Positions 2,843-41,310 of a DNA stretch of 64,000 nucleotides are shown here, piece by piece. The notes beneath the pieces were generated by a model, which saw only the letters and a program-made list of their open reading frames with translations, had not been told where the DNA came from and ran no database searches. The stretch's first letter is position 1. Each line of letters starts with the position of its first letter. The position numbers were made by a program, and so were the translations under genes. Origin of the DNA: Candidatus Heimdallarchaeota archaeon (GTDB lineage Archaea; Asgardarchaeota; Heimdallarchaeia; Heimdallarchaeales; Heimdallarchaeaceae); assembly GCA_016840095.1 (NCBI GenBank), contig JAEOSZ010000111.1, positions 86,612-150,611 on the forward strand. Reading direction: 5' to 3'.

Positions 2843-3434
2843 TTTGTTTAATGTTATCCGGTAAATAATCGTTCTTTTCTAAATCTATTAAATCTTTAAA
2901 TTTGTCTATATCACTGTATGCGTTTTTACTTTCTAAAATCTCAAATGATAATTCAAGTTTCTCAAATACATCTCTAAATCTTAAAGCAGAGTTCTTACCA
3001 AAAACTAATGGGAAAGTGTCTCCTTTATTGAAAATCAAAATACTAGTTCCATTGTCCTTAGTAGGTCCAAGTAGTATTTTCCTCTCATTATAATTCTTAT
3101 CAAGAATAAATTGTAAATCTTCGGATTTAATTAAAGGTAGATCTGCCATAACAACAGTAATTATATCTTCTTGAATCTCCTTGAAGGCTTCATTTAATGA
3201 TTCATTTAATTCATCCCCCTTGTCATGAAGTATAGAGAAATATCCTGAAAAATCTAATTTTTTCTTTTTTGTAAGGATATACAAATTTGCATCATGTTCA
3301 AGTTTAGCAATTTCATCTATTAGATTCTGAGTCATATGATGAAGCAGTTTTTCAACCGATGAATCTTTTAAACTGGATCGTAATCTACTCTTATCGTTTA
3401 TTGTTCCTCTGTATGGTATTATTATTGCTTTCAT
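2814..3434 (-). CDS. cofC: 2-phospho-L-lactate/PEP guanylyltransferase CofC
   Basis: AIIIP...KSRL, MADLPLI, GPTKDNGTSIL, FGKNS, DID..DL; adjacent to cofD. Confidence 0.8.
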   Translation of the reverse strand: MKAIIIPYRGTINDKSRLRSSLKDSSVEKLLHHMTQNLIDEIAKLEHDANLYILTKKKKLDFSGYFSILHDKGDELNESLNEAFKEIQEDIITVVMADLPLIKSEDLQFILDKNYNERKILLGPTKDNGTSILIFNKGDTFPLVFGKNSALRFRDVFEKLELSFEILESKNAYSDIDKFKDLIDLEKNDYLPDNIKQIVKECVDFE

Positions 3435-4224
3435 CAGCTATTCTTCCAGTATAATCTGATACTAAATATTGCATAAATTCTGGGTTTTGCATTAGTGGTC
3501 TAGCAACAGAAGCTGCTTTTGCTCCTGCTTTTAGCATTGTATGAATGTCATTTATTGTTCGAACTGAGTTATTTCCTATTATTGGGATATCCGTTAATTC
3601 TACAAATTTTCTAATTATTTTAATGTTAGCTCTTTTTTGACCTGGTAACATAGCATCAACATGAATGTAGGAAATAGAATAATCTTCCAAAATCTTTGTT
3701 AGACCAGAATAATCACCAATAATATGTCCTCGAATTTTTATTCCTAGGGGAAAAGAGGGTAATAGTTTTCTTATCGAATCAAGCAGAGTTTCAAGTTTTT
3801 CAGGTTTTAAAAGTAAATTATGCCCACCATTAATTTTTAGAATCTCTTCTTGTCTACAATGAGCATTAATTTCTACAATATCAACAAACTTTGTGACTTC
3901 ATTTAGCCATACTTCAGAAAAATAATCTGCATTTATGAGTCGCACATTGAAACTAACTAGTTGATGATTAGTCTGTTTCTCTAAATTTAGGTTTTCTAAA
4001 CACCATGATTTAACTTGATCAACTTTGAATTGGAGGAGGAATTCATCTCTACCTCTTTCTATCATTCTTGTTGTGGTTAGATGTGATTCACGGTCTATTG
4101 AAAATCCTCCTAGTGTTACCATTCCTGCTCCATAATTTAGAATCTTTTGGCAAAAAGCTCCATCTGAAATTCCTGCTATAGCTGATTGAACAATTGGTGG
4201 TATAAATCTAGGATTTGCACTCAA
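3391..4224 (-). CDS. Dus-like FMN TIM-barrel oxidoreductase (archaeal MJ0144-like)
   Basis: AIAGISDG, TLGG, EINAHCRQ (catalytic Cys position), KIR, IHVDAM, IIGNNSV, SVARP; no C-terminal tRNA-recognition domain evident. Confidence 0.8.
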   Translation of the reverse strand: MSANPRFIPPIVQSAIAGISDGAFCQKILNYGAGMVTLGGFSIDRESHLTTTRMIERGRDEFLLQFKVDQVKSWCLENLNLEKQTNHQLVSFNVRLINADYFSEVWLNEVTKFVDIVEINAHCRQEEILKINGGHNLLLKPEKLETLLDSIRKLLPSFPLGIKIRGHIIGDYSGLTKILEDYSISYIHVDAMLPGQKRANIKIIRKFVELTDIPIIGNNSVRTINDIHTMLKAGAKAASVARPLMQNPEFMQYLVSDYTGRIADESNNNTIQRNNKR

Positions 4225-4230
4225 GATAGT

Positions 4231-5157
4231 TTACCCCCTATTTAGGATAAATGATGCTAGATTTTTTGATATACCTTTTTCATTGAATAAGATATTCTGT
4301 GTTATTACTTCTAAGTTTGTTTCATTTTCTATATCTTTCCTGAAATTTCCGTCCGATTCATGAATAATTATTGTGGAACAAACATCTTTGTAGAGCCTAG
4401 CAATACCTAAAGGAGATACCTCAAGTCCTTTTGCTTTCATCAGATTTTCTGTTGGTCCGCTTATTGGCTTATCCCCTATAATTGGACTGATAGCTATACA
4501 TTTACTCTTATTCTTTTCGAGTGTTTCTCTTATTGCGGATACATCTAATATTGGTCCTATGCTGGTTATGGGATTACTTGGGCCTATAATTATTGTATCA
4601 GAGTTAACCAATTCTTCTTGTGCAGAACGAGAAAAAATAGCATTTTCCACATTTCTTACATAGATATTCTTTATTTCTGTTTCTCCTTTATGTTTAACCC
4701 AAAATTCCTGGAAGTGAATATCTTCATCGTTGTTTGTAACTATACGCGTTTCAATGTGGTTTTCTGAACTTGGATAGATTTTACTTCTTATTCCTAACTT
4801 GTTTATTAAAGAATTAATTATTGAAGACTGGTTCTTTCCGTTCTGCATTTCAAATGTTCTGAAAATATGCAAACCTAAATCTTTGTCTCCTAATCTGAAC
4901 CATGTATCTATTCCATATCTGTTTAGAGCATTTAATGTATTGAAGGATTCATCCTTTACGCCCCAATATTTTTCAACATCTAGTAATTCACTGAAAAGAT
5001 AGAGTATTGTGTCGATATCTGGTGAAACATATAATCCATAGATCCAGATATTATCAGCTGAATTTGCAATAATAGCTAGTTTATCATCATTAATAATTTC
5101 TCTGAATCCTTGTATTAGTTTAGGGGTTCCTGTTCCTCCAGATAGGAAAGTAATCAT
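4231..5157 (-). CDS. cofD: 2-phospho-L-lactate transferase CofD
   Basis: LSGGTGTPKL, VSPDIDTILY, WFRLGDKDLGLH, IHFQEFWV, IGPSNPITSIGPIL. Confidence 0.93.
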   Translation of the reverse strand: MITFLSGGTGTPKLIQGFREIINDDKLAIIANSADNIWIYGLYVSPDIDTILYLFSELLDVEKYWGVKDESFNTLNALNRYGIDTWFRLGDKDLGLHIFRTFEMQNGKNQSSIINSLINKLGIRSKIYPSSENHIETRIVTNNDEDIHFQEFWVKHKGETEIKNIYVRNVENAIFSRSAQEELVNSDTIIIGPSNPITSIGPILDVSAIRETLEKNKSKCIAISPIIGDKPISGPTENLMKAKGLEVSPLGIARLYKDVCSTIIIHESDGNFRKDIENETNLEVITQNILFNEKGISKNLASFILNRG

Positions 5158-5185
5158 TTTGAACCCTCAAATCTTGAAAAATACC

Positions 5186-6136
5186 TTATTTTTTAGCTGT
5201 CTTCTTTGCAGTTGTTGTCTTCTTTGCAGTTGTTGTCTTCTTTGCAGTTGTTGTCTTCTTTGCAGTTGTTGTCTTCTTTGCAGTTGTTGTCTTCTTTGCT
5301 GCTGTAGTTTTTGGTTTAGCTGTAGTTTTTGTTGCTGTTGTCTTCTTTGCAGTTGTTGTCTTCTTTGCTGCTGCTGTCTTTGGTTTAGCTGTAGTTTTTG
5401 TTGCTGTTTTAGCTTTAGTCTCTGGTTTTGTCTCCTCTTTTTGTTTTTCTGGAGTTTCCTTAGGTTTTACTGGTGCAGTTTTCTTTGGTAGTTTTTTCTT
5501 GGGAGTTCCTGTTTCCACCAATCGTAATCTAGAAGTTGATTTTATTACAACTCTATAGTAGGAACCATTTTCTCCCATATCTGGGTTTCGAACGATTTTG
5601 ATAACATCACCAGGTTTTGCTTGTATTGCTTTTACTGCAGCATCAGTTTCTAGTATCTTTGGTATTTGATGTTTCTGAATCTGATATCTTTCCAAGAATC
5701 CTTTTATGTCTCTAGTTCTGAGCTTAACATGCTGACGAACTAGTTGATGCTCAAAGATATTAAACAATGGATTAGTGCTACTAATAATTTCAATTCCTAA
5801 TTTTACAGATTCCTTTTTTGCATAATGTGTTAATGGGGATTCTGCAATTAGTAAGGCTTCATCTAGTTCCTCTTCTTCTTGTAATTTACCTAGAAGTCTG
5901 ATTAATTTCACACCAATTTGAGGATTTTTTGGGAATCGTGCAATAGCTGTTACTGTTTCTTTTTCCTCACTAAGCTTCTTAGCATATACATCTAGAAAAT
6001 CATCGTCTTCTTTTGTATCACTAATCTTAAATCCTCTAAACTCAAGAATTTCCTTAACTCCATCCACAATCCTCTTTTCCTTGGCTTTTTGTTCCTTAGA
6101 AGACAAGTAAGTTACCTCGGCATCCTTAATAATCAA
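5186..6136 (-). CDS. rpo5: RNA polymerase subunit Rpo5/RPB5 with eukaryote-like N-terminal domain and Lys/Thr/Ala-rich C-terminal tail
   Basis: RpoH domain FNIFEHQLVRQH...IPKILETDAAV..IQAKPGDVIKIVR...YYRVV. The preceding RGF...FPKNPQIGVKLIR...ALLIAESPLTHYAKK resembles the RPB5 jaw domain. Confidence 0.85.
   Translation of the reverse strand: MIIKDAEVTYLSSKEQKAKEKRIVDGVKEILEFRGFKISDTKEDDDFLDVYAKKLSEEKETVTAIARFPKNPQIGVKLIRLLGKLQEEEELDEALLIAESPLTHYAKKESVKLGIEIISSTNPLFNIFEHQLVRQHVKLRTRDIKGFLERYQIQKHQIPKILETDAAVKAIQAKPGDVIKIVRNPDMGENGSYYRVVIKSTSRLRLVETGTPKKKLPKKTAPVKPKETPEKQKEETKPETKAKTATKTTAKPKTAAAKKTTTAKKTTATKTTAKPKTTAAKKTTTAKKTTTAKKTTTAKKTTTAKKTTTAKKTAKK
5197..5420. repeat. Coding 18-bp tandem repeat (gcagttgttgtcttcttt) plus a larger imperfect duplication; encodes AKKTTT repeats
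   Basis: About five consecutive copies at 5197-5297, then degenerate copies (KTTAKPKTAAAKKTTT) up to about 5420. Confidence 0.92.
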
Positions 6137-6183
6137 ATTAATTAAAATCTTTTGACAAGTGAGAGGTTTTAATTAAGTCTATT

Positions 6184-6546
6184 TCATTCTTCTTCTGTTT
6201 GAAATTTGATGTAATAAGAACCATCTTTATTTCGACTTATAATTGGTTTAGTGTCACCATTTTCTGTAAGTAATTTTTCTATATCTACTTCAAAAATTCC
6301 TTCACTTGTAAGTCTGATTGCTTCTAGTCCATCTTTTATATCAGTTTGATGAATCTCTTTCTCGACAATAAGATCAAGTTCTTCCTCTTTCTTCTGGTCA
6401 GTAGATCTTTCCTTATAGGTTTTGAATTTAAATGACCCACAATGTGGGCATCCATTAAGTAGAATTTGACTGTTCAATTCAAGTTCTTGTTCGCATAATG
6501 CACAAATTGTGATTTTATTAGATGGATTTGACATATAATCACACAT
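6184..6546 (-). CDS. OapC/ArvC-family (DUF2072) zinc-ribbon protein
   Basis: CALC...ILLNGCPHCGSFKF N-terminal ribbon; C-terminal EAIRLTSEGIFEVDIEKLL...DGSYYIKF. Confidence 0.78.
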   Translation of the reverse strand: MCDYMSNPSNKITICALCEQELELNSQILLNGCPHCGSFKFKTYKERSTDQKKEEELDLIVEKEIHQTDIKDGLEAIRLTSEGIFEVDIEKLLTENGDTKPIISRNKDGSYYIKFQTEEE

Positions 6547-6562
6547 TCTTCTTGTTTATCAT

Positions 6563-7423
6563 TTATTCAAGTTTAATACTAGAATTATATAGGAAAGGAC
6601 CTCTATGATCACATTTTGGACATCCTTTTCTTTCTAATTCTTCTATAGTATTGAAACCTCCTTCAGAACCAACAGTAAAGACTTCACCACATATCGTTTT
6701 ACAGCTATAAGTTTGCAACTTACTATTACTCTCTCTATAATACATCGGTCCATAATAGTGATTAGGAATTGTTTCTTTTGAATTTGCTTTTACTTTGATA
6801 ATGTACATATCTGATACAGATTTGTTCAGTGGTGTATCATGTTCATATGTATTGAAGTCTGTTTTTTTCTCTTCAATTTCTAAGTTCATTTTCTCAATCA
6901 ATTTTTCTAGAATACACATCCTTTCATCTTGAATATCAAAGGAAAGGAAAATTTTGGAGGATGTATTCTTGTTTGCACATTGAACAGCTCTTGTTAAACC
7001 TATTTCCAATCCTTCCTCAGTCATTGGAGGTTCAAGAAAGATATAGTCGAATTGATCTTTGAGAATAATTATCATTCTGATTCTAATATCATGGTTTACA
7101 TATCTTATAGATCTGATTTTTTGCTTAACTTTCATATTAAAAACGATTTCAGGTATTCGTTTGTCAATGTCTAAAACTGCTAAATCCTTTGGTTTTGAAA
7201 GAACTCCGATAGGTAAAGAAGTCAAGTCCATATCTCCTAGAAAAATTATCCTCTTTCCATTATATTCATCAGGATTTATAACTAGAGCTCTCTCTAAACT
7301 CGAGCTTTTTGTAACAAAATATTGATCAAGCTCCTTATTTGGTGTCCCTCGCAGTTCATTCAATTCAAGAAAAGCTTTGTCAATTTTTTCAAAAAGCTCA
7401 TCTTTTCCTGGATTTATACTCAT
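6563..7423 (-). CDS. Branched-chain polyamine synthase BpsA-like (DUF43) aminopropyltransferase with C-terminal Cys cluster
   Basis: P..ELDQYFVT..S..ERA, GKRIIFLGDMDLTSL, VLDIDKRI, HDIR, FDYIFLEPPMT; C-terminal CKTICG...CPKC. Confidence 0.75.
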   Translation of the reverse strand: MSINPGKDELFEKIDKAFLELNELRGTPNKELDQYFVTKSSSLERALVINPDEYNGKRIIFLGDMDLTSLPIGVLSKPKDLAVLDIDKRIPEIVFNMKVKQKIRSIRYVNHDIRIRMIIILKDQFDYIFLEPPMTEEGLEIGLTRAVQCANKNTSSKIFLSFDIQDERMCILEKLIEKMNLEIEEKKTDFNTYEHDTPLNKSVSDMYIIKVKANSKETIPNHYYGPMYYRESNSKLQTYSCKTICGEVFTVGSEGGFNTIEELERKGCPKCDHRGPFLYNSSIKLE

Positions 7424-7467: not shown

Positions 7468-9735
7468 TTAAGAAAGAAAAGTTAGCTGTTTTAGAACGTT
7501 AAATAATTCATCGATTGGAAGCTTCTGTAATTTCTCATTTTCTCTTGTTTTTCTGTCTAATTCTTTAAGCAAAATACTGAACTCGTAGGCTGATTTAGAT
7601 AATTGTGCAAATGTTGAATCATATTGAGCAATTGATTGTAAATGATCACTAGCATCCTTTGCTGCCTTAGCACCATCGTTAAAGTGAGAAGCAGCTTTGT
7701 AATTTTCCTTATTTGTATTTGCACCAATTCCGAAAATTGCTTTTTTGGTTGCTTCAAGAAAATCAGTTAGAGCTAGCGATAGAATCTTCTTAATTTCTAT
7801 TGCACCCCAATTAATATTTGAATCTTGTAAATTAAACATCTCCTTGTGATTCAACAACTCCAAACAATTTTCTGCAATTCGTTTGTTGATTATATCAAAT
7901 AGTGCAAAATGATTGAAATTATGGTTGATTATGGCAAAATAATTTTCCTTGATAGAATCTTCTCCAGAAAGAGATAATCTATATCCTTTGGCAATTTTAT
8001 CGATTACTGTATTCAAAAACAAATATTGTCTTGATAGTTCAAACAACCGCAATTCTACATCTTGTCCTTGAATAAATGTTTGACTATACCTGTGCTCTAC
8101 CCACTCTTTATCAATAATTGATTCACTACTGAGTTGAGATATTTCAAGAGCCTTTGTAGAGTAATAATGAGCTTTTGCATGATATATTATATCCAAAACT
8201 TCGTTTGATTCTTTTTCTGCAAGATTTTGTTCTAAATACATAGAATTAGCTAAAAACTCCAAACACTCTATGTCTTTTACAATGTAAACTTTCTTTTCTG
8301 TTTTAGGAAGAAAGTATGCAGAAATTTTTACTGTTCCTATATTCTCTAACAGAGGTTGGATATCATCAAGTTTTATTTTAGTATCTGCTTTCTCTATTTC
8401 TATTAATTGTGTAGAAATATCATTGATTGCATATTCCAGTCTTTCAATAAAACGAACAAGATTCTGTTCTGCTTTTTTCATTGCTTCAGAGAGAGGAGTA
8501 TCTTCAAGAAGAGCAATTTTAAGTTCTTGAACAAAATTAAGATAAACAAAGGGGAGACTACTAACATAGTTGATATTTACTTTCAGATCTGGTCTGTTAA
8601 CAATTTCTTCAATTTCTTCAACAATACCTTGGATATTTTCCTTTTTGTTATCTGTTATAGTACTGTTCAACAAAGAGGTTTTAGCAGCCAGTTCTGCAAT
8701 TCCATGAAAGAAGCTATGTACTGTTTGATCTTTCTTTATACCTTCTTTCAGAGCTAAGGTCCTTTCGGTCATTTCTACATTAGAATCTAAGATTGTTAGT
8801 GCCTCTCCTTCAAGTCCCAAAACTAAGTTCAAGTACTCTACACTTGCAATAAAACTATTACTTTTAGCTGCTTCAAAGCTCAATCTTAAATAATGATCTA
8901 TAAGTTCCTTGTTTCTTTGAGCTTGGTTTAAAGAGATGTGGCTAGTTTCAATTTCTTTTCCTTTTAATTCTGGATCTTCAGGAATTTGCTTATAATAATC
9001 TAGTGCGGTTTCAAGGTGACTTAAGCTTCTCTCAAATGCAAAATGAGTGGCTACTGAATCTTTCCACCACCAATCTTCTCCTAATCGTTTTAGAAATTGT
9101 GCAGTGAATGATACATCAAATTCTGCCATAATTAGTTCATAAGCACCTTTTTCCTCAATTAATTTCTCTTCACTATAACCGTTTGGTGATTCTTCTAGTA
9201 GATGAATAATCTGTTGTTTTTGATTAAGCAAAAGGAAAGTTAGCATCACTTCTTCAATATTTGAAGCTCTTGGATGAGAGGAGTCAAAATAGGTTTGTGA
9301 AATAGTGTTGAGTATTCTATATCCTTCGATATATGCAGTACAATATTCAGGTGATGGTTGAGTTCCAAAAATTCCTGTATTTACAATATCTGCATAAATG
9401 ATCATTAGAATTGCTAGTTCCATTTGAAACTCTTGTAAATCTTCTAATTTTTGAGTAATTATGCCTTTTCTCTCCTCATCTGCATCTATTTGTACTCTGT
9501 CTCTTGTCCATTCATCCAGAAAACGACTATAGAGAAGATGAGATAATGAAGAAACATTCGAAAGAGTATCAGCACAGAATCGCGAAAAATCTAACCAAAC
9601 TTGACTAATTTCATCCAAATCATCAATTTGTACAAAAGATTGGTAAATTCTTTCACGTTCTAATTCCATTAATACAAACTGCTTGAATGGTGAATCACTA
9701 AGTAGCTTGACTATCTCTTTCGAAAATAACATCAT
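7468..9735 (-). CDS. Hypothetical alpha-helical protein (755 aa)
   Basis: Long ORF with helical, E/L/I-rich composition; no recognised motif. Confidence 0.7.
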   Translation of the reverse strand: MMLFSKEIVKLLSDSPFKQFVLMELERERIYQSFVQIDDLDEISQVWLDFSRFCADTLSNVSSLSHLLYSRFLDEWTRDRVQIDADEERKGIITQKLEDLQEFQMELAILMIIYADIVNTGIFGTQPSPEYCTAYIEGYRILNTISQTYFDSSHPRASNIEEVMLTFLLLNQKQQIIHLLEESPNGYSEEKLIEEKGAYELIMAEFDVSFTAQFLKRLGEDWWWKDSVATHFAFERSLSHLETALDYYKQIPEDPELKGKEIETSHISLNQAQRNKELIDHYLRLSFEAAKSNSFIASVEYLNLVLGLEGEALTILDSNVEMTERTLALKEGIKKDQTVHSFFHGIAELAAKTSLLNSTITDNKKENIQGIVEEIEEIVNRPDLKVNINYVSSLPFVYLNFVQELKIALLEDTPLSEAMKKAEQNLVRFIERLEYAINDISTQLIEIEKADTKIKLDDIQPLLENIGTVKISAYFLPKTEKKVYIVKDIECLEFLANSMYLEQNLAEKESNEVLDIIYHAKAHYYSTKALEISQLSSESIIDKEWVEHRYSQTFIQGQDVELRLFELSRQYLFLNTVIDKIAKGYRLSLSGEDSIKENYFAIINHNFNHFALFDIINKRIAENCLELLNHKEMFNLQDSNINWGAIEIKKILSLALTDFLEATKKAIFGIGANTNKENYKAASHFNDGAKAAKDASDHLQSIAQYDSTFAQLSKSAYEFSILLKELDRKTRENEKLQKLPIDELFNVLKQLTFLS

Positions 9736-11422: not shown

Positions 11423-11499
11423 GATCCCGTAGCTCAGTTGGATAGAGCGTTTGCCTCCTAAGCAAATGGTCGTGCGTTCGAATCGCATCGGGATCGCCA
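11423..11499 (+). tRNA. tRNA-Arg(CCT), CCA encoded
   Basis: Acceptor GATCCCG/CGGGATC; D arm GCTC/GAGC; anticodon stem TTTGC/GCAAA with loop CT-CCT-AA; T loop TTCGAAT; G73-CCA. Confidence 0.97.
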
Positions 11500-21337: not shown

Positions 21338-21429
21338 GCCCCGATAGCTCAGCCTGGCTTAGAGCGGTGATCTCGTAAATACTTCGAGAAAGTCGCAAGA
21401 CGGGGGTTCAAATCCCCCTCAGGGCTCCA
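21338..21429 (+). tRNA. tRNA-Thr(CGT) with 13-nt intron at 37/38 (21378-21390), CCA encoded
   Basis: Acceptor GCCCCGA/TCAGGGC (one C.A mismatch); anticodon stem GTGAT/GTCGC; CT-CGT-A, intron AATACTTCGAGAA, then A38; CTCG/CGAG central BHB helix; T arm GGGGG-TTCAAAT-CCCCC; U73. Confidence 0.9.
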
Positions 21430-21481: not shown

Positions 21482-22408
21482 ATGACTTCATACCTTTTTA
21501 TTGTAAATCCAAATGCTAGAAATGGCGATATTGGAAAGATGTGGCCTAAAGTTGAAGAGGAAATCAAGAAACGAGGTTTAAATTATACAGTTGAAATGAC
21601 AAATGAGCCAAGACATGCAATTGAAATAGCAAAATCAAGAGGAGAGGAATTTGATGTTGTTGTTGCTACTGGGGGAGATGGGACAGTAAATGAAGTAGCT
21701 AATGGTTTGTATGGGCTGAATACAACTTTTGGGATCTTACCACTAGGAAATGGTAATGATTTTGCACTTGGTATAAAACTTGATGAGGATTATCATAGGA
21801 GTTTAGATATCCTTGAACAAGGATTAACCTGCGATTTAACTGTTGGTTTAGCTAAAGCTGATGATGATGAAAGATACTTTGTTAATATTGTAGATACAGG
21901 TGTAGGAGCTACTGTTTCAGTTGCATCCTTCACAGAACTTAAGTGGTTAAGAGGATTTCTCAAATACTACATTCTTGCTTTTAAGAAGCTGTTTCAATAT
22001 CGTTTGGTAGACACCGTGATGCAAATAGATGATCAAGAGGAATTTAAGTCAAAGCTTCTCATGATTGCTGTTGGTGCAGGAAGTAGATTTGGGGGAGGTT
22101 TTCACATATTACCTGAAAATTATCACTATCGGAAAGATTTTGGCATTCTACTTGCTGAGGATATTAGAAAATTAAGACAAATATACTTGCTTCAAATCCT
22201 GAAACCCGGAAAACACTTAGGTAAAAAAGGTGTTACCCATATAAGAGGAAGTAAAGTAACTCTTCAACTAGGAAGACCACTTCCAGTTGAAGTTGAAGGT
22301 GAAATTGTAAACTATGGTGCTACTAATGTTTCATTTGAAGTTGCACCTTTATCAATGAAAACAATTGTACCCCAAGAATTACTAGATTTACAGAAAGCTG
22401 AACCATAG
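21482..22408 (+). CDS. Diacylglycerol/sphingosine kinase family lipid kinase (YegS/DgkB-like)
   Basis: IVNPNARNG, GGDGTVNEVANG, LPLGNGNDFA, YFVNI, RFGGG, VEGE. Confidence 0.9.
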   Translation: MTSYLFIVNPNARNGDIGKMWPKVEEEIKKRGLNYTVEMTNEPRHAIEIAKSRGEEFDVVVATGGDGTVNEVANGLYGLNTTFGILPLGNGNDFALGIKLDEDYHRSLDILEQGLTCDLTVGLAKADDDERYFVNIVDTGVGATVSVASFTELKWLRGFLKYYILAFKKLFQYRLVDTVMQIDDQEEFKSKLLMIAVGAGSRFGGGFHILPENYHYRKDFGILLAEDIRKLRQIYLLQILKPGKHLGKKGVTHIRGSKVTLQLGRPLPVEVEGEIVNYGATNVSFEVAPLSMKTIVPQELLDLQKAEP

Positions 22409-22462
22409 AAAAAGAGATAAGCCCATATCTCTATTATTTTCTTTAGTATACCATCATGAAGA

Positions 22463-22951
22463 GTGATTCAGATACTGGTGAGTTTCATGCATGTAGGATT
22501 CATAATTCAACCCTTATCTCCCACAGATACTTTGGATAAAGTCATTAGCATTTTAGATAAGGATAGAGAAATGTTCCCTAAAGAAGGTGTTCTTTTTTTT
22601 ATAGAATCATACAATGAAACCTATGGAAGCCATATTACCAAACAAAACCAAATTACAGGACTCGATGAATGGTTTAAAGAATATCCTGTAAAACAAGGAG
22701 ATATAATTATTCTATCTAAATATTCAGAAGGATACTATTTATCGTCAACATCTGAAATTGTAGAACAGCAACACCATTTCACGCTGGAAATGGATAGAAT
22801 TCTCTCAATGGAACCTGGAGATATTTTGTGCCCAAATTGTAGGTATAATCTTGAACATGCAGGAAGAACTTCAAGAAAAGATTCGTACATCTTAAAGTGT
22901 GCAAGGTGTGGATTTGCATTAGTTAAAAAAAGTGATTACGATTTAGAATAA
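22463..22951 (+). CDS. Hypothetical protein with C-terminal zinc ribbon
   Basis: CPNC...CARCG. Confidence 0.65.
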   Translation: MIQILVSFMHVGFIIQPLSPTDTLDKVISILDKDREMFPKEGVLFFIESYNETYGSHITKQNQITGLDEWFKEYPVKQGDIIILSKYSEGYYLSSTSEIVEQQHHFTLEMDRILSMEPGDILCPNCRYNLEHAGRTSRKDSYILKCARCGFALVKKSDYDLE

Positions 22952-23093
22952 TAGAAGAACCTACTGATTCTATGTTATTAGCAACTGTAATGACAATTTA
23001 ACCTAAGAATTCTGTAACTTTTTTTTTATAAAGTGTGCATGTGAAAATACCTATGTATTATGTGCCTTTTTGTGCTGATGTGATTTTATTTGC

Positions 23094-23714
23094 ATGAAAT
23101 TTATGCTACATAACATATGGATTGCTAAAGATACTGGTGAATGCCTATTTCATCGTAAGTACGGTAGCATAGATCATGATGAGAATCTTATTACAAGTTT
23201 TCTTAGTGCTATTGAGATTTTTGCACAGAATGTTGATGAAGGGTGTGATCATCTACAAACTACTCGGTATAAGTTCATCTATACAACTTCTGATAAAACG
23301 GTAACCGTTGCTTGTGTTGATAATACCGATGATGATTGTATCATCAGGGATGAATTACAGAAAATTCAATCAGAGTTTCATAAACGTTTTGCAGATGAGT
23401 TGAAAGAGTGGAGAGGGAGAGTAGAACACTTTTCTCAAATGAGTGATTATGTAGATGCGCGACTTGAAAAGTACAGCACACCTGTTGCTAATTTAGTTTC
23501 TTCCAAATTAGAACTTAATCCTCAGATTATAAGCAGGGATGTTGGTAAGAAATTTAGCAGCCAACAACAAAAAGTAATTTCTCTGTTGAAGTATAAAGGA
23601 TCTGCTACTCTAAATGACATTGTAAAACTGATGAAACTAAATGAGGAAGATGCTCAACAAGCTACAAATGATTTATTGTACAAAAACATCATACGTCAAG
23701 TTCCAATATCTTAG
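23094..23714 (+). CDS. Longin-like domain + C-terminal winged-helix protein
   Basis: IWIAKDTGECLFHRKYG...ENLITSFLSAIEIFAQ (Asgard longin pattern); C-terminal QQKVISLLKYKGSATLNDIVK wHTH. Confidence 0.72.
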   Translation: MKFMLHNIWIAKDTGECLFHRKYGSIDHDENLITSFLSAIEIFAQNVDEGCDHLQTTRYKFIYTTSDKTVTVACVDNTDDDCIIRDELQKIQSEFHKRFADELKEWRGRVEHFSQMSDYVDARLEKYSTPVANLVSSKLELNPQIISRDVGKKFSSQQQKVISLLKYKGSATLNDIVKLMKLNEEDAQQATNDLLYKNIIRQVPIS

Positions 23715-23768
23715 AAGTTTTCAAAAGACAAAGGTTTTAAAGTATTTTAAGTCAAAGCCATTGATAGT

Positions 23769-26297
23769 ATGTCTCTTATTGATTACTGGAATTTACTATG
23801 GGATTTAATTAAAAATGATCCCAATATTGGAATTGGTATTCTTATTGCTTTGTTAGGCTTAATATTTCTTATATCAGAAATTGTTACAAAAATAAGACAT
23901 GGAACAACTTCAGAGAATCTGATGTTAGCATTTATTGCTCTAACTTTTGGCCTTGTTTTAATTTTTCTTAGCAACTGGTTAATAGCGATAGCTTTGAGTC
24001 TATTTGTATTAGCTGTTTATCAAACATATATGCTTAGAGAATCACCTGTGTGGAGGGAACTAATGATAATTTCAGTAGTAACGTATTTCGTATTCTTAGT
24101 AGGAACAGTAGGAGACAAAGTGTGGCAACTTGTAACTGGTGAAAAAAATGAGTTATTTACAGGTTGGGCTTATAACTTAATGTTATATGTTTTCATAATT
24201 CTTGCACTAATATTCTTTGGAAAGAAATTCGTACTAGTTAGTCGTTTTATGTCTCCTCAAGTATTATACTTGACACTCTTTGCACTTGTTTATGTTGCTT
24301 TATATGGAGTTGGCAAGTTAATTCCAGGATTTGATAACCTTACATGGAATTATATTGGACTTACATCATTTTCATTGTCCAATTTCTTCACAATTGGTGG
24401 TAGTTCTATTTCAGCAAGTGCAGGAAATCACCTGGGAGGTCTAGTTAAGACAGATTCCCCCTTAGTTCTAAGAACAATCTTTCTTTCTTTGGGACCTTGG
24501 GAAATGATTATTCTTCTTTCAATCTTAATGTATTTCATATCTGGTTGGCTTCTCACAGTACTACTGGGAATAAAACCAACTGATGATAAAAGAGTTCTGA
24601 AGGTTGTAGAAGAAGTAAGAATCCGTTTAGGAATAAAGAGAAAAATCAAGGTTGGTTTTGTTGAAGCCCCAATTTTAAATGCGATGGCCTATGGACCTTT
24701 GTTCGATCAAAGAATAGCACTCATTTCATCAAGCCTAGATGAGTTTAGTGATGATGATATTAGAGGAATTGTTGCACACGAATTAGCTCATAACCAAAGA
24801 GGTCACATCATTTGGCTTCAATTGTTAGCTTGGATTGAGATGATTATTAAGAAAGCATTTTTACTACCTGCAACAACCTTAGACTATGCTGCAGTTAAAG
24901 GACTTATCCCATTTGGTTTGTATTTCCTGATTAGCTATGGAATTATTGCAGTTCTCTATATCTTTGTTAGAATCTTGGAGGGTGACGCTGATCTACAAAC
25001 TAAAAAAGCAGGTTATGGTAGAGAGTTAGCTCAAGTTTTGTACAAACTTGAAGGCTTTTATCAAGGTGTTGCGGGTGATTTTGGAATAAATGTTCAATTA
25101 TTGACAGGCAAAGAATTTAGTCCTGAGGAGAAACAAAGGTTCCAAGGAGAAGCAGCAATGAGACTCTATAAACATCTTTACCGTCCTGGTAGATGGGATA
25201 TGGTTGCAAATCTGTTTATGTCTCACCCACGAACAGCATACAGAATAGTAGCTGTTGTAAGTGATGATTATTCCCCAGTCAAAGGTGCATTACTGCCCTT
25301 TTGGTTAGTTTTACCTAATTTCATTAGAGGAAATGCAATCAGAAAAATGAGCAAAAGAAGAGATGATTTCTCAAAATTAATTTCAGATAGATACAACGAA
25401 TATCACGGAGAAGATGGTGTAAAATCATTTCTTGAAATTACGAGAATGCATGATTTAATCTCAATGCTCAAAGGTAGATATGTTGTTGCATACGATAGAA
25501 TTTTTGATGATTGTATAGAAGGTGAAGTTATAGATATTGAAATTAGTGATACTATAGTCAGACCTCTTCTTTTGAATATTCAAACAGAAAAAGAAGTTAA
25601 GAAAATTCTCTTTACAGATTATGTTATTCATGACGCTCAAAAAGAGGACAAATATATCTTGAAAAATGGTAAAATGGGTAAATTAGTCTCTTGGGATTTA
25701 GATGAAAAAAATCAAAGTCCAACATTTACTTTTCAAGAAATTTCCGACACTTCTAAAACTTTCAAGCGAGATTATACAGGAAAACCGATATCACATTTCA
25801 CAGAATTGATAGGACAGGAAGTATTCAGCTATAATGATGGATTAGACAGGAAGGCAACTTTAACAGATATATCCTTTGAAAAGGATTTTGCTTCCTCTAA
25901 ACTTACTCTTGAGACAGATGATAATGGTAAGATGAAAAAATTTGAGCTCACAGGGAGAGATGTTATTATTGACTTACCACCAGTATTAGTAAGACTTAAT
26001 CCTGATAAAAAGGGTCATCAAACAGGTTTGATAGAGTCTATTGTAGATAAGTCAGTTATTCTTTATACAAAAGAGGAATTAGAAACTGGCATTGCGTGCT
26101 CTATAACAAGTGTAAGTGATGAAAAAATAACTTATAAAATAAAAGATAAAGAATCTGAAGTTGAAAGGAAGAAGGTTGATTATATCTATATTTATACAGA
26201 TATTCCAAAGTTCATGATAAAGAAGCATATATCTTCTCTTGATAGGATTATGATGCGAATCTCAAATATTCGTGATATGAAGTATATTTTTGGATAA
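23769..26297 (+). CDS. M48 (HtpX/Ste24-like) membrane zinc protease with large N-terminal TM region and C-terminal beta-rich extension
   Basis: NAMAYG, AHELAH, EGDAD, SHPRT. Confidence 0.85.
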   Translation: MSLIDYWNLLWDLIKNDPNIGIGILIALLGLIFLISEIVTKIRHGTTSENLMLAFIALTFGLVLIFLSNWLIAIALSLFVLAVYQTYMLRESPVWRELMIISVVTYFVFLVGTVGDKVWQLVTGEKNELFTGWAYNLMLYVFIILALIFFGKKFVLVSRFMSPQVLYLTLFALVYVALYGVGKLIPGFDNLTWNYIGLTSFSLSNFFTIGGSSISASAGNHLGGLVKTDSPLVLRTIFLSLGPWEMIILLSILMYFISGWLLTVLLGIKPTDDKRVLKVVEEVRIRLGIKRKIKVGFVEAPILNAMAYGPLFDQRIALISSSLDEFSDDDIRGIVAHELAHNQRGHIIWLQLLAWIEMIIKKAFLLPATTLDYAAVKGLIPFGLYFLISYGIIAVLYIFVRILEGDADLQTKKAGYGRELAQVLYKLEGFYQGVAGDFGINVQLLTGKEFSPEEKQRFQGEAAMRLYKHLYRPGRWDMVANLFMSHPRTAYRIVAVVSDDYSPVKGALLPFWLVLPNFIRGNAIRKMSKRRDDFSKLISDRYNEYHGEDGVKSFLEITRMHDLISMLKGRYVVAYDRIFDDCIEGEVIDIEISDTIVRPLLLNIQTEKEVKKILFTDYVIHDAQKEDKYILKNGKMGKLVSWDLDEKNQSPTFTFQEISDTSKTFKRDYTGKPISHFTELIGQEVFSYNDGLDRKATLTDISFEKDFASSKLTLETDDNGKMKKFELTGRDVIIDLPPVLVRLNPDKKGHQTGLIESIVDKSVILYTKEELETGIACSITSVSDEKITYKIKDKESEVERKKVDYIYIYTDIPKFMIKKHISSLDRIMMRISNIRDMKYIFG

Positions 26298-32687: not shown

Positions 32688-33013
32688 GGACGATGCAGAA
32701 ATACCCCTGATTCTGTTCGGAAGCCATTAGGATCTTCCTGGCAACATTCATCTAAGCACTTTACCCAGTTCTTACGAACTCTACTTAAGCTTGCTCCACG
32801 ATGTTTGACCGTTTCATCGTATCCTAGTTTCTTCTCAGCAATTTATTCTAAACATGTCACCAGTCTATTTATCGCATCATTGTTATCGAAACTAGGGCGT
32901 TCGTTTCTGTTTCAAGAGCCATATTCTCATATGGTGGATTTACATCCACATCGTTATTATGGAGTCAGGAGGTTCCTCAGCAATAAGCCGAAAGTTGCCC
33001 TTTTGCTTCGTCC
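32688..33013 (-). ncRNA. rnpB: RNase P RNA
   Basis: Minus strand 5' GGACGAAGCA...GAGGAACCTCCTGA..., internal ACAGAAACGAA and GAAACGG, 3' ...AACAGAATCAGGGG...TGCATCGTCC. P1 GGACGA/TCGTCC and P4-region CCTCCTGA/TCAGGGG pairings; about 326 nt. Confidence 0.88.
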
Positions 33014-34887: not shown

Positions 34888-34963
34888 GGGCCAGTAGTTC
34901 AGTGGATAGAATGGCTGCCTGCGGAGCAGTTGGTCGACGGTTCGAATCCGTTCTGGCCCGCCA
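34888..34963 (+). tRNA. tRNA-Arg(GCG), CCA encoded
   Basis: Acceptor GGGCCAG/CTGGCCC; anticodon stem GCTGC/GCAGT with loop CT-GCG-GA; T loop TTCGAAT; G-CCA. Confidence 0.96.
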
Positions 34964-37599: not shown

Positions 37600-38613
37600 T
37601 CATTCTTCTAAATATTTTACTACTTCAATACCTGCTTTATAACCATCTCCTATAAGAATAGGAGTGTAATCCAATTCTCCCTTAATGGTTCCAGCAGCAA
37701 ACAAACCTTCTATATTTGTTGAATTATTTATTTGTGTGTTAATGAACCCATCTTCAGTTGTTGAAATATTAAGTTCTTCAAAAATTGATAAATCTGGTTT
37801 ATCCTTTAGCTCTATGAATACACCATTTACTGAAAGTTCTTTCATCTCACTTTCTTCTTGATACCTTAATCCTTCTACATTTTGACTTCCAAAGATTTCC
37901 ACAGTATCAAGATTAACATTATTTCTTATTGTGATGTTAGAAGCTGCAGTTAGTTTCTTTAGAAATCTTTTATCGCAACCTAACTCATCATCTGGACATA
38001 GAAGAGTTACTTTCCTACAGTACTTTCTTAGAAAAAGAGCTCCTCTAGCTACAAAATTACCTGTGCCTATAATTACAACCTTTCTTCCTCGAAAGAGAGC
38101 TCCATCGCAGACAGCACAATGTGAAACACCTTTGTGAACAAAAACCTCTTCTCCTTTTATTGTGTGATGAAGTTCTGGAAGACCGGTTGATATTATAATT
38201 GATTTAGCTTCAATTGATTTTTCTTCAGTGTTGATAATGAACTTATTTTCTTCTTTAGATACAGATTTGACCATTTCATTAGTAATGTTCAATACTGGAA
38301 CAACTTGATTAACATCTGACATGATTTCTTCTTTAGGAATTTCTTCTGCAGAATCAGAAGATATTTTGTCTTGAATAAACTCTAAGTTGAGACTCTGCAC
38401 TTGGTCAACGATTTGTTGGATAAAATCAACACCAATAATTTTGCTAATACCTGGCAGAGTTTCTAATTCTCCTTTCTTTGCTGTATTTGAATCGAATGGA
38501 ATACCAAACAATTTAATCTTTAAATCAGGATTTTTACTATATGCAGCAATAGCTGCTGATAAACCAGTAGCACCTGAACCAATAATAGCCAAATCACAAT
38601 TCTCTGCATCCAT
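37600..38613 (-). CDS. Thioredoxin reductase-like flavoprotein with degenerate NADPH-binding motifs
   Basis: IIGSGATGLSAA; GVSHCAVCDG (CxxC); GTGNFVARGA and LLCPDD replace GGGNSA and HRR; GLFAAGT. Confidence 0.82.
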   Translation of the reverse strand: MDAENCDLAIIGSGATGLSAAIAAYSKNPDLKIKLFGIPFDSNTAKKGELETLPGISKIIGVDFIQQIVDQVQSLNLEFIQDKISSDSAEEIPKEEIMSDVNQVVPVLNITNEMVKSVSKEENKFIINTEEKSIEAKSIIISTGLPELHHTIKGEEVFVHKGVSHCAVCDGALFRGRKVVIIGTGNFVARGALFLRKYCRKVTLLCPDDELGCDKRFLKKLTAASNITIRNNVNLDTVEIFGSQNVEGLRYQEESEMKELSVNGVFIELKDKPDLSIFEELNISTTEDGFINTQINNSTNIEGLFAAGTIKGELDYTPILIGDGYKAGIEVVKYLEE

Positions 38614-38740
38614 ATCAATACACTACTATTAAAATAAAAAAACTTTGTTGATAAGGAAAAGTCGAACATCAAAGTATTGACAAAAGATTATTTTTGAAAA
38701 TAAAAAATGAAAAATAAAAGATGAAAAAGGAAAAAAGGGC

Positions 38741-38956
38741 TTAGTTGTCTACAATAAAGTAGAATACTGACCTCATATCGTTTAAATTACTTCTCTTAAT
38801 TATTAACCCTAACTCAATCAATCTTCTTAGGGCATATCTTGCAGTTCTTGCAGGGATTGCCGAAGCTTTAATTAGTTGCTTTTGAGTTAGTGGACCCTTT
38901 TTTTCCAAAATAGAAAGAAGTTTTTTTCCCGAAACTGGTATTTCTTCATCTGCCAT
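38741..38956 (-). CDS. Small winged-helix (MarR-like) DNA-binding protein
   Basis: LEKKGPLTQKQL...PARTARYALRRLIELGLI...DMRSVFY. Confidence 0.85.
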   Translation of the reverse strand: MADEEIPVSGKKLLSILEKKGPLTQKQLIKASAIPARTARYALRRLIELGLIIKRSNLNDMRSVFYFIVDN

Positions 38957-38986
38957 ATTTGTTATCCCCTTGCTTAGTAAGTAATA

Positions 38987-39066
38987 CGGATAAGCTACTC
39001 TTATAAAAGCAATCTCAGTATTTTATCCGCGATTGCTAGAGAGTTTCTAGAGGATTTATCCGCGAT
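38987..39066. promoter_or_regulatory. Candidate operator repeats: TTTATCCGCGAT x2, plus an inverted TTATCCG half-site
   Basis: Exact 12-mers at 39022-39033 and 39055-39066 (33-bp period); CGGATAA at 38987-38993; located upstream of the wHTH gene. Confidence 0.55.
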
Positions 39067-39271
39067 ACACTGTTTGATATTTTACTTTTATTCTAACGTA
39101 ATATCGCACTAATACACAGCTAATTTTTTAGTGCTAAGAAGATAAGTGCTAAATGGCTATTTAAACTCATAAGATTTCTGATGACAAATTGCTCTCTTTA
39201 GTTTATTTTTGGTTAAATCATAATAAAGCTTATAATGGTTAAACAGTCATATGTTTCTTTAGTGAGGTCTT

Positions 39272-39730
39272 GTGAGTCACAAAGTTGAAAGTTCTCCAGA
39301 AATATACCATTTAGCTAATCAGCTACAAAGAATCAACTATCTTGGGAATGTACAGACCATTCAAATCGAATTTGAATTTATACCTGAAGATAAGAAAGTT
39401 GAACTTGACGATATGTTTCAAGACTCAACAGGTATTGGAAAATTTAAGTCTGATTTGATAATTCTTGAACAGATTTCTGGAAGAGATATGTTGGAAATCA
39501 TAAATACACTCCATAATATTAGTTTGATATTTGGTGATCTTTCAATCATAGATGGAATAACTTCGTTAGTTGAAGTAAGTTACAAAGGAGAAACGTACTT
39601 TGTAGTTGTTGCATATAACCCTTCAACCAGTGGTTTGGAGTTAATTTCAACATCAGAGAGTAAATTATATTTTGAGTTACTAAATTTTATTAGAACCAAA
39701 TGGGCTCTTTCAAAGACTTTCATCAAATGA
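39272..39730 (+). CDS. Hypothetical protein
   Basis: GTG start with GAGG upstream; 152 aa. Confidence 0.65.
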   Translation: MSHKVESSPEIYHLANQLQRINYLGNVQTIQIEFEFIPEDKKVELDDMFQDSTGIGKFKSDLIILEQISGRDMLEIINTLHNISLIFGDLSIIDGITSLVEVSYKGETYFVVVAYNPSTSGLELISTSESKLYFELLNFIRTKWALSKTFIK

Positions 39731-39747
39731 TGGAATTGAATCCATTT

Positions 39748-40851
39748 TCATTCAACCAGTTTATCACTCAAAATTTGTTTCAGAAGCTTAACTTTAATTT
39801 GTACATCCTCATCTTCAAGTTGCTTCTTCTTGTTTTCTACTTTCTCGCTTATGTCATAGAGAATGTAGGAAGCAACATGAAAATCTACAGTTAACCCTTT
39901 GGAATAAAGATCCTGTAGTACAAAATCAGACCCCATTTTTGATAAAGCAAAATTATATCCCTTGAGAAATGCTATAATGTCCTTTTTTGTTTCATCAAAG
40001 TTTTTGTATTTCTGAAATTCTTTAATTAAAGGTTTAGCAAAAAAAGTTCCTATATCTTCTGCTCTATCTCTGCCTGGCATGATAAATTCTGGATCAATGA
40101 TATACACTTTTATTTTTGGAGGAAACTCTTCAGTAATCTCACTCCCAGCTGAAGTAACATCTGAAGAAAATAATAGATTCCCTTGGTGAAAATCTCCATG
40201 AATTAGAGTTGAACCAAGAGATTCTTCTAAGGAAAGAAAAGAAGGAAGCATTAAATCCAAAATTTCTGATTCTAAAGAAGTGTCATTCAGAGTAGACAAA
40301 AGATACAATACTAGCTTCTTGTAAGGTTCTGTAGCAAATTTATTAGTTTCAACACCATGGATAGTTGATAGAGTCTGACCTGCTAATTGATGTTTAAAAT
40401 TCTTGTCGAGACTTGTCTCTCTAAAACTTTTTCCTGTAATCCCTTCGTAGATAATGCATCTATTTGAGTGACTCTTATAAATAATTTCAGGGATGTAAAT
40501 ACCAGGAAATCTTTCAGTTGTTTTGGAGATTATATCATAATTCTTTATTTCTTTGTTGTATCTCACATCGTCTGCTGAAAACTTTACAACCAGGTTAATT
40601 GACTGTTCTCCAATATCAGTATTCAGATAATATGTTACGAAATGTACTTTAGATTTAGAGGTTCCTTTCTCAATTGAATTAACTTCCTTTATGGATATCA
40701 AAGAAGGTAATTCACCAGTAGTTTCGAAAATCTGTGATTTGAAATATGAGTCAAGACTCTCTCCAATTGTTGTAAGAATTATTCTTAGTTTTTGTTTCTT
40801 TCTAACTGAATCAGGAGAGAAGGATTCTGTTTTCTCATTCAAAAGACTCAC
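39748..40851 (-). CDS. APH/choline-kinase-like phosphotransferase (protein-kinase-like fold)
   Basis: VVKF, E..NY, IYE, IHGDFHQGNLL (Brenner motif), IIDPEF, EDIG. Confidence 0.82.
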   Translation of the reverse strand: MSLLNEKTESFSPDSVRKKQKLRIILTTIGESLDSYFKSQIFETTGELPSLISIKEVNSIEKGTSKSKVHFVTYYLNTDIGEQSINLVVKFSADDVRYNKEIKNYDIISKTTERFPGIYIPEIIYKSHSNRCIIYEGITGKSFRETSLDKNFKHQLAGQTLSTIHGVETNKFATEPYKKLVLYLLSTLNDTSLESEILDLMLPSFLSLEESLGSTLIHGDFHQGNLLFSSDVTSAGSEITEEFPPKIKVYIIDPEFIMPGRDRAEDIGTFFAKPLIKEFQKYKNFDETKKDIIAFLKGYNFALSKMGSDFVLQDLYSKGLTVDFHVASYILYDISEKVENKKKQLEDEDVQIKVKLLKQILSDKLVE

Positions 40852-40926
40852 TTTCTAAACCAATTATTAAAAACAAGTAAAAACCCACTGAAAAACTTAC
40901 CTCTAATTTCTTCTCTCTTTCCCCAG

Positions 40927-41310
40927 TTATATTAGAAGATTTAGTGGATTTAACATTCCGATTATTTTGTCTCCGTCTACTACAATAAGATGATTGATTT
41001 TGTGTTCTTTCATTTTTAATAATGCAGATGAAATAGTTTCATGAGCACTGATTTTTATTATTGGAGTTTGCATGACTTCTCGAACTTTAACTTTTTTCAA
41101 TTCCTTATCTTCAGAAATGACTTTTATAATATCCTTACTAGTGAGAATTCCTATTGCATTTCCATTATCTGCAACCAGCAAAGATCCAACATCAAAATCT
41201 GCCATAATTGATGTGGCTTCGTAAAGATTTTTTGATGATTTTATATACAAAATTCCTTTTGTCATTACACTCGAAACTGGGTCATCAATTTCGTAGGTTC
41301 TAAGTGTCAT
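40927..41310 (-). CDS. CBS-domain pair protein
   Basis: VMT...VGSLLV..GILTSKDI; VREVM..P...M..HKINHLIVVD. Confidence 0.92.
   Translation of the reverse strand: MTLRTYEIDDPVSSVMTKGILYIKSSKNLYEATSIMADFDVGSLLVADNGNAIGILTSKDIIKVISEDKELKKVKVREVMQTPIIKISAHETISSALLKMKEHKINHLIVVDGDKIIGMLNPLNLLI

Follow-up and report, generated by a model that had tools for sequence, protein, structure and literature searches.

The 64,000-nucleotide stretch of DNA analyzed here (hereafter the window; contig JAEOSZ010000111.1, positions 86,612 to 150,611, of the Candidatus Heimdallarchaeota archaeon assembly GCA_016840095.1) encodes an archaeal RNA polymerase subunit, Rpo5 (RpoH), whose N-terminal domain is homologous in sequence and fold specifically to the jaw of eukaryotic RPB5. 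The product of this gene, rpo5, consists of an N-terminal domain (N-domain; amino acids [aa] 11-122), an assembly domain (aa 125-197) and a disordered tail of 112 aa. We consider it very likely that the open reading frame (ORF) specifies the single Rpo5 of the Heimdallarchaeaceae polymerase, a long form orthologous to full-length RPB5, with the mechanism and origin proposed below. The window, with a G+C content of about 32%, lies on contig C122 (our numbering) of a 3.44-Mb genome that is 89% complete, and the nearest relatives of the ORF are labelled Candidatus Heimdallarchaeota or Heimdallarchaeaceae. The interest of the long Rpo5 lies in the origin of the eukaryotic transcription machinery. 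If the proposed reading is true, another supposed eukaryotic innovation in transcription shifts back into the archaea, the origin of the jaw becomes concrete as an inactivated Mrr-type nuclease, and both the jaw and an added DNA-binding tail become open to study without the complexity of RNA polymerases I, II and III (Pol I, II and III).

The second of the two folded domains is a bona fide Rpb5_C domain. It matches the Pfam family PF01191 (RNA_pol_Rpb5_C) from the first to the last of its 73 model positions (E value [E] 1.6e-21; 76.3 bits, the cut-off being 23.5), and RpoH and RPB5 chains of the PDB match the rpo5 protein at E of about 7e-28. The same assembly domain makes up the short archaeal Rpo5/RpoH of 75-85 aa (PDB 4qiw_H, 8cro_H and 2waq_H; E 6.6e-28), which differs from the protein studied here in having neither N-domain nor tail. 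Identity to Thermococcales RpoH chains reaches 42-47%, the root-mean-square deviation (rmsd) to all archaeal chains is about 2.7-3.0 Å, and anchoring on Rpo1'/Rpo1'' is presumed to be the same. Five quasi-invariant residues bind Rpb1 in yeast, namely, H147, P151, D182, R200 and R212 (PMC1802627). Four of the five, all but the proline, are kept in the assembly domain of the Asgard protein as H130, D165, R183 and R195, each of them invariant in an alignment of homologs (A1).

Homology of the N-domain to the RPB5 jaw was tested independently of the assembly domain. When the N-terminal 124 aa alone were compared with the PDB, the top six matches were RPB5 chains (E 0.0024). With the same piece, phmmer returned 18 matches among 1.8 billion representative proteins, mostly proteins of 177-295 aa; one of the 18 (P0066, E 3.9e-4) is a eukaryotic RPB5, to which Pfam Rpb5_N matches at E 1e-39. 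Ten of the 18 were scanned with Pfam, and Mrr_cat was found together with Rpb5_C in 7. We then relied on an alignment of 30 Asgard N-domains without their C-domain (A2), excised by DNA reference from long-form genes of 20 Asgard families. The 12 best PDB matches of the A2 profile were all RPB5, with human RPB5 residues 12-117 recovered at E 1.1e-10, and no nuclease matched with E below 1. Human RPB5 aligned to this profile with a single insertion of 18 residues, on the human side. Comparison of A2 with 32 metazoan RPB5 N-domains by hhalign gave a probability of 97.1% (E 6e-11, 91 columns), and in the reciprocal direction a profile of the metazoan N-domains retrieved the rpo5 ORF only (E 0.0014) among all 9232 six-frame ORFs of the genome; Heimdallarchaeaceae N-domains were among the top scorers of this profile.

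The likeness extends to individual motifs. Across the 30 Asgard N-domains a single residue is invariant, the arginine in the RGY/RGF motif that closes helix 1. It lines up with DRGY, the invariant motif of RPB5 helix alpha-1 (RGY in human RPB5). The rpo5 gene of the window carries RGF at this position, the preceding Asp not being kept. Charge inversion of the corresponding arginine in yeast (R26E) is lethal (PMC1802627). Two further blocks, FP..P.(V/I)G(V/I)K.I(R/K) and T-x-x-AK, are shared with RPB5. An earlier reading made from the sequence only had pointed to about 120 aa ahead of the RpoH domain, including FPKNPQIGVKLIR and LQEEEELDEALLIAESPLTHYAKK, and had set them beside strings of human RPB5; both Asgard strings do lie before the Rpb5_C match, and HMMER alignments to RPB5 chains of the PDB showed that the human strings are real and align as claimed.

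Eukaryotic RPB5 (RPABC1, POLR2E; PF03871 plus PF01191; PDB 1dzf, 5flm_E, 7f4g_E and 7eu0_E) has the same order of two domains, and its N-domain has the same fold of a helix, three strands, a helix, a strand, a helix and a strand. The N-domain of rpo5 was modelled with a predicted local-distance difference test score (pLDDT) of 93.5 and superposed on RPB5 residues 3-134 with a Z score of 12.2 and an rmsd of 2.1 Å, 104 of its 112 residues being aligned, so that the modelling onto RPB5-N on which the sequence-only reading had staked its case turned out in its favour. A Foldseek search with the full-length model gave full-length RPB5 chains as its 36 best matches (E 1e-13, with about 210 columns aligned) and ranked the short RpoH chains below them. 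The two proteins also differ in several respects. The N-domain of rpo5 has about 112 aa against about 130-140 in RPB5, and the polycationic tail of 112 aa found in the Heimdall protein occurs in no RPB5. RPB5 is common to Pol I, II and III; the Heimdall Rpo5 serves one archaeal polymerase.

The same N-domain resembles Mrr-type nucleases (PF04471; NA-iREase1, PF22722; AF1548, 1y88; EndoMS/NucS, 5gkj; MspJI, 4f0p), with which it shares its fold (Z 8-11.5) and Pfam matches. A Pfam scan of the whole protein gave only sub-threshold matches to Mrr_cat (PF04471; 19.9 bits) and NA-iREase1 over aa 25-119, while the N-domain alone reached 24.0 bits with Mrr_cat, above the cut-off of 21. Among the 30 Asgard N-domains, Mrr_cat was matched by all (E 0.01 or better) and the inactive restriction endonuclease family NA-iREase1 by 28. 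By sequence profile, however, the Asgard N-domain is nearer to RPB5-N than to any solved nuclease.

The long form of Rpo5 occurs widely among Asgard archaea. At least 20 of the 30 sampled Asgard families have frames of 180-250 aa in which an N-domain can be aligned, which supports the earlier proposal that the two-domain form predates eukaryotes, and short frames of 81-125 aa were found in five (f8, f13, f14, f18 and f19). PF01191 is present in 282 of the 301 genomes of the phylum, and the N-domain of this particular Rpo5, used as a single-sequence query, in 169 of them. A profile search of a protein collection returned relatives named only as Asgard groups (Heimdall-, Hod-, Hel-, Jord- and Thorarchaeota labels). 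An assembly or fusion artefact as the source of the long protein was rejected, the same architecture recurring in well over 100 genomes. Elaborated forms were seen as well: the Rpo5 of family f2, which belongs to the same order, has 475-480 aa with three tandem nuclease-like modules before the assembly domain (L059:21-1446 and L060:1100-2594, both on the minus strand), and in family f11, of Loki type, there are often two tandem long rpo5 genes (L046, 644-1283 and 1348-1927, plus strand; L047, two genes, minus strand).

In papers on the structure and evolution of polymerases, the jaw has been treated as eukaryotic. The N-module of RPB5 has been called "typically eukaryotic" (PMC1802627) and handled as eukaryote-specific (PMC3906176), archaeal Rpo5 has been said to lack "the first ~130 residues" (PMC2675907), and the distribution of the RPB5-N domain has been listed as Eukaryota (PMC3424549). 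A chimera with yeast N and Pyrococcus C parts has been found to fail in the absence of selection (PMC3906176). The long Rpo5 goes unmentioned in published overviews of transcription in archaea, of the informational proteins of Asgard archaea and of small archaeal polymerase subunits (PMC7289017, PMC10307638, PMC13257274). We found no published description of a jaw-bearing archaeal Rpo5 in a search that covered few subscription journals, and an earlier report is possible.

Several observations weigh against orthology with full-length RPB5 and the role that we derive from it. The Pfam model of the jaw, Rpb5_N (PF03871), which the sequence-only reading had suggested as a check, matched neither the rpo5 protein nor anything else in the genome, and it matched only 2 of the 30 Asgard N-domains, at no better than E 1.5e-5, where Mrr_cat matched every one. 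This miss was not counted against homology because the model stops near residue 94 of human RPB5 (residues 4-94 of P0066 were matched), while the best-conserved block lies at about 72-122. The rpo5 N-domain also lacks the insertion of about 18 residues that eukaryotes have between strands 2 and 3. In structural alignment RPB5-N (Z 12.2), EndoMS/NucS (Z 11.5) and AF1548 (Z 10.9) are tied, and therefore structure alone cannot separate RPB5-N from the nuclease folds; the link specific to RPB5 is one read from sequence profiles rather than from the fold. Foldseek with the N-domain model alone likewise placed EndoMS and RPB5 together at the top, at a weak E of about 1e-3. In the full-length model the two domains are oriented towards each other differently than in solved RPB5 (global rmsd 7-8 Å), and a complex prediction of the N-domain with Rpo1'' and the Rpo5 assembly domain (score 0.00, mark 0.32) is evidence for neither side. 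At aa 134 (about 5735-5737, minus strand) the protein and its three closest kin have Arg (LVRQH) where other homologs have Pro (LVPQH), and the yeast substitution P151T is temperature-sensitive. The eukaryotic sequences used were metazoan or PDB chains. Finally, the proposed position in the polymerase and the putative role of the tail are drawn from homology and composition.

Some of these points would also fit a convergent history, in which Asgard archaea and eukaryotes each joined a different Mrr-like domain to RpoH and the N-domain is an analogue of the jaw instead of its orthologue. The uneven Pfam matches (Mrr_cat in all Asgard N-domains, Rpb5_N in two) and the tie of RPB5-N, EndoMS and AF1548 at the level of the fold favor such a history, as does the mobility of nuclease-like modules, which are tripled at L059 and L060 and fused to MgtE_N in the protein P0054. 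However, the profile built from N-domains only matched RPB5 and no nuclease in the PDB, the hhalign comparison and the reciprocal genome search agreed with it, and domain order, linker position and the critical arginine of RGY (PMC1802627) are common to both proteins. One fusion is, moreover, more parsimonious than two. We consequently regard convergence as unlikely and keep to orthology with RPB5.

Transfer of the two-domain gene from a eukaryote into Asgard archaea, which would make it uninformative on the pre-eukaryotic state, appears more unlikely still. The similarity to RPB5 does span both domains. Against such a transfer, the long form is a single-copy subunit in at least 20 of the 30 sampled families, and its assembly domain is nearer to archaeal RpoH (the Thermococcales chains above) than to RPB5, to which identity is about 20-23% at full length. 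The Asgard N-domain is also nearer to Mrr than RPB5-N is and is free of the eukaryotic insertion, which fits an earlier state better than a derived one.

PF01191 matches once in the 89%-complete genome, and the 22 further genomes of the genus that were searched have exactly one match apiece. The gene rpoB lies on another contig (C152), where unrelated genes fill the roughly 12 kb that separate rpoA'/rpoA'' and rpoB on one strand (about 21800-25900 and 37800-41200), and where a helicase and SurE are encoded upstream of rpoB. The rpoH-rpoB-rpoA operon is thus dispersed in this genome, with rpo5 outside it, as had been noticed earlier, and rpo5 is its only rpoH. The other strand carries, just downstream of rpoB, a gene for a NusA-like KH protein. 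A second, specialised paralog had been suggested from the location of rpo5; a short rpoH would then stand before rpoB, and the long gene would serve a subset of polymerases. The separation of rpo5 from rpoB and rpoA, the incompleteness of the genome and the tandem duplicate long forms of another family (L046 and L047) speak for it; the single PF01191 match in every searched genome of the genus, the absence of rpoH upstream of rpoB and the four conserved Rpb1-binding residues leave it hardly any probability.

The exit of rpo5 from the operon may not be a peculiarity of this genome. At the five short-form Asgard rpoH loci that were fetched (L061-L065, one from each short-form family), rpoB stands directly downstream in every case, unlike the long gene of the window. 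At the long-form loci (L003-L060, 20 families), rpoB was absent from the 0.3-1.5 kb of downstream sequence examined. In this small sample of loci, which are not phylogenetically independent, gain of the N-domain appears to accompany exit from the operon.

The sequence-only reading was right in seeing a two-domain, RPB5-like Rpo5 rather than a short RpoH, but it missed the tail and the restriction-endonuclease character of the N-domain. RPB5-N itself has been classed as a PD-(D/E)XK fold (PMC3424549). With catalytic columns assigned by the general fold rule and not by residue-level superposition, no Asp, Glu or Lys column was invariant or at least 90% conserved in A2, and strand 3 carried no (D/E/Q)-x-K, reading AIARFPK here and VVWIFKEP in Loki-type forms. 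We read the N-domain as a catalytically dead Mrr-type PD-(D/E)XK nuclease fold because of these two features, which also set it apart from Mrr nucleases with their conserved Asp and (Asp, Glu, Gln)-x-Lys, as does its fusion to a polymerase subunit. An active nuclease fused to the polymerase, cutting DNA or RNA at, for example, stalled complexes or foreign DNA, is no more credible than the second paralog: the Mrr_cat score of the isolated domain and an Asp (D49) that opens strand 2 in this family speak for it, while the lack of conserved catalytic residues, the matches to the inactive family NA-iREase1 in 28 of 30 members and a PD-(D/E)XK survey that gives RPB5-N only the role of an RNA polymerase subunit, with no nuclease activity on record (PMC3424549), speak against it.

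The Asgard N-domain seems to connect the eukaryotic jaw with nucleases of Mrr type, and the jaw part of eukaryotic polymerases probably arose in archaea. According to the history that we propose, RpoH of an archaeal ancestor would have acquired an Mrr-like nuclease domain by fusion, this domain would have lost its activity, the resulting gene would have left the rpoH-rpoB operon, and eukaryotes would have inherited the fused form. By homology, the assembly domain would anchor Rpo5 on Rpo1'/Rpo1'', and the N-domain would serve as lower jaw next to the channel for downstream DNA, the arrangement known from Pol I, II and III. The wider version of this history, in which the RPB5 jaw is a domesticated Mrr-type nuclease domain, fused and inactivated in an archaeal ancestor alongside the exit from the operon and then elaborated by Asgard archaea with tandem copies, tripled jaws and, within the genus studied here, an H1-like polycationic tail tethering the polymerase to DNA or chromatin, is one for which we see the chances as evenly balanced.

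Relatives of the N-domain were also met outside Rpo5. The 275-aa protein P0054 joins an N-domain-like module (46% identity over aa 13-84) to MgtE_N/FliG_M-like domains without Rpb5_C, which may represent a further use of the module or else an artefact of assembly. In annotation, long rpo5 genes bear only the label "subunit H", and N-domain fragments have been given the label "restriction endonuclease" (P0085).

The third part of the protein is a tail composed of 32% Lys, 33% Thr and 16% Ala with a net charge of +31, and pLDDT falls below 50 over aa 204-316. It is encoded by tandem repeats, in which an 18-nucleotide (nt) unit (KKTTTA) present 10.3 times at 5198-5380 is nested in a 69-nt unit present 3.0 times. 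In the genus (g1), every complete copy that could be read through has a tail of 75-154 aa with 31-42% Lys and a net charge of +18 to +52. The repeat units vary among species, with KKTTTA here and KPKKTPSKTA, KKAKATPD, AKKTTP and others elsewhere. Tails in other genera of the family are short or acidic, and other families have none. Since the composition of the tail is kept while the repeat sequence turns over, the comparison suggests a polycationic disordered appendage under selection. A general habit of the proteome was rejected as the source of the Lys-rich tail: only five six-frame ORFs of the genome have such a low-complexity tract, that of Rpo5 being the most extreme. The other four (contigs C128, C59, C44 and C4; L066-L069) are an HhH protein, two similar Toprim-domain proteins on different contigs, which are possibly duplicates or contamination, and a 940-aa frame with no Pfam match.

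Rpo5 sits by the downstream DNA in the polymerase (PMC7289017, PMC2847245), and we infer by analogy that the tail may be a non-specific tether to DNA or chromatin near the downstream duplex. Two systems offer a comparison. The small Rpo13 of Sulfolobales docks next to Rpo5 by the downstream DNA channel; its lysine-rich end, with ten Lys in the last 20 residues, was proposed to touch DNA, and its site is partly filled in eukaryotes by the RPB5 jaw (PMC2675907). Rpo13 is, however, a separate helix-turn-helix subunit, and its likeness to the Rpo5 tail is taken here as an analogy. The C-terminal tail of histone H1 and chlamydial Hc2 resemble the Rpo5 tail in composition, being long disordered Lys/Ala/Thr/Pro repeats of high positive charge, and Pfam HC2 (PF07382) is listed in precomputed annotation on two Rpo5 homologs. 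This is a low-complexity likeness without demonstrable homology, the repeat units varying even among species of the genus.

The features of the window are collected in Table 1. The rpo5 ORF ends with TAA (5186-5188) and encodes 316 aa if read from the first TTG, at 6136, or 306 aa from a second TTG, at 6106. The latter (codon 11) is probably the start, because it coincides with the start of most homologs in A1, because GAGGT stands 7 nt upstream of it and because residues 1-9 have a pLDDT below 50 in the model. The coordinates given by the sequence-only reading, 5543-6136, cover the N-domain and the assembly domain and stop short of the tail, the gene reaching 5186. A Cys/Leu/Ser-rich ORF on the plus strand (5159-5491) was rejected as a gene, being an antisense reading of the tail repeats. 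A scan for promoters and terminators of bacterial type is uninformative for an archaeon.

Table 1. Location of rpo5, its parts and other features of the window (positions are those of the window).
Feature	Position	Strand	Basis
rpo5/rpoH, whole long-form ORF	5186..6136	-	ORF list and translation; start from homolog alignment and upstream sequence
N-terminal domain, aa 11-122; putatively inactive Mrr-type PD-(D/E)XK fold, RPB5-jaw homolog	5771..6106	-	Profile, hhalign, model, structural alignment, Pfam Mrr_cat
RpoH/Rpb5_C assembly domain, aa 125-197	5546..5764	-	Pfam PF01191, PDB matches, alignment A1
Disordered polycationic tail, aa 205-316	5189..5524	-	pLDDT, composition, comparison with kin
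Tandem DNA repeats encoding the tail	5198..5408	-	Tandem Repeats Finder
GAGGT, putative Shine-Dalgarno-like motif 7 nt upstream of TTG 6106	6114..6118	-	Read from sequence
A/T-rich, possibly TATA-like run TTTTAATTAA	6138-6147	-	Read from sequence
cofD	4231-5157	-	
oapC-like zinc ribbon gene	6184-6546	-	
bpsA-like gene	6563-7423	-	
755-aa ORF	7468-9735	-	
tRNA	11423-11496	+	
tRNA	21338-21426	+	
Archaeal RNase P RNA	32691-33010	-	157 bits
tRNA	34888-34960	+	

The order bpsA-like gene, oapC-like gene, rpo5 and cofD, on the minus strand at 3391-7423, is kept throughout the family, and rpo5 followed by cofD occurs in three other Asgard families as well (conserved-order loci L003-L031, L036, L040 and L042). 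No functional link of rpo5 with these conserved neighbors is apparent. No Pfam family matched the 755-aa ORF that lies upstream of the bpsA-like gene. Elsewhere, the window carries an archaeal RNase P RNA and three tRNAs, one of which, at 21338, is 89 nt long with a lower score and may contain an intron.

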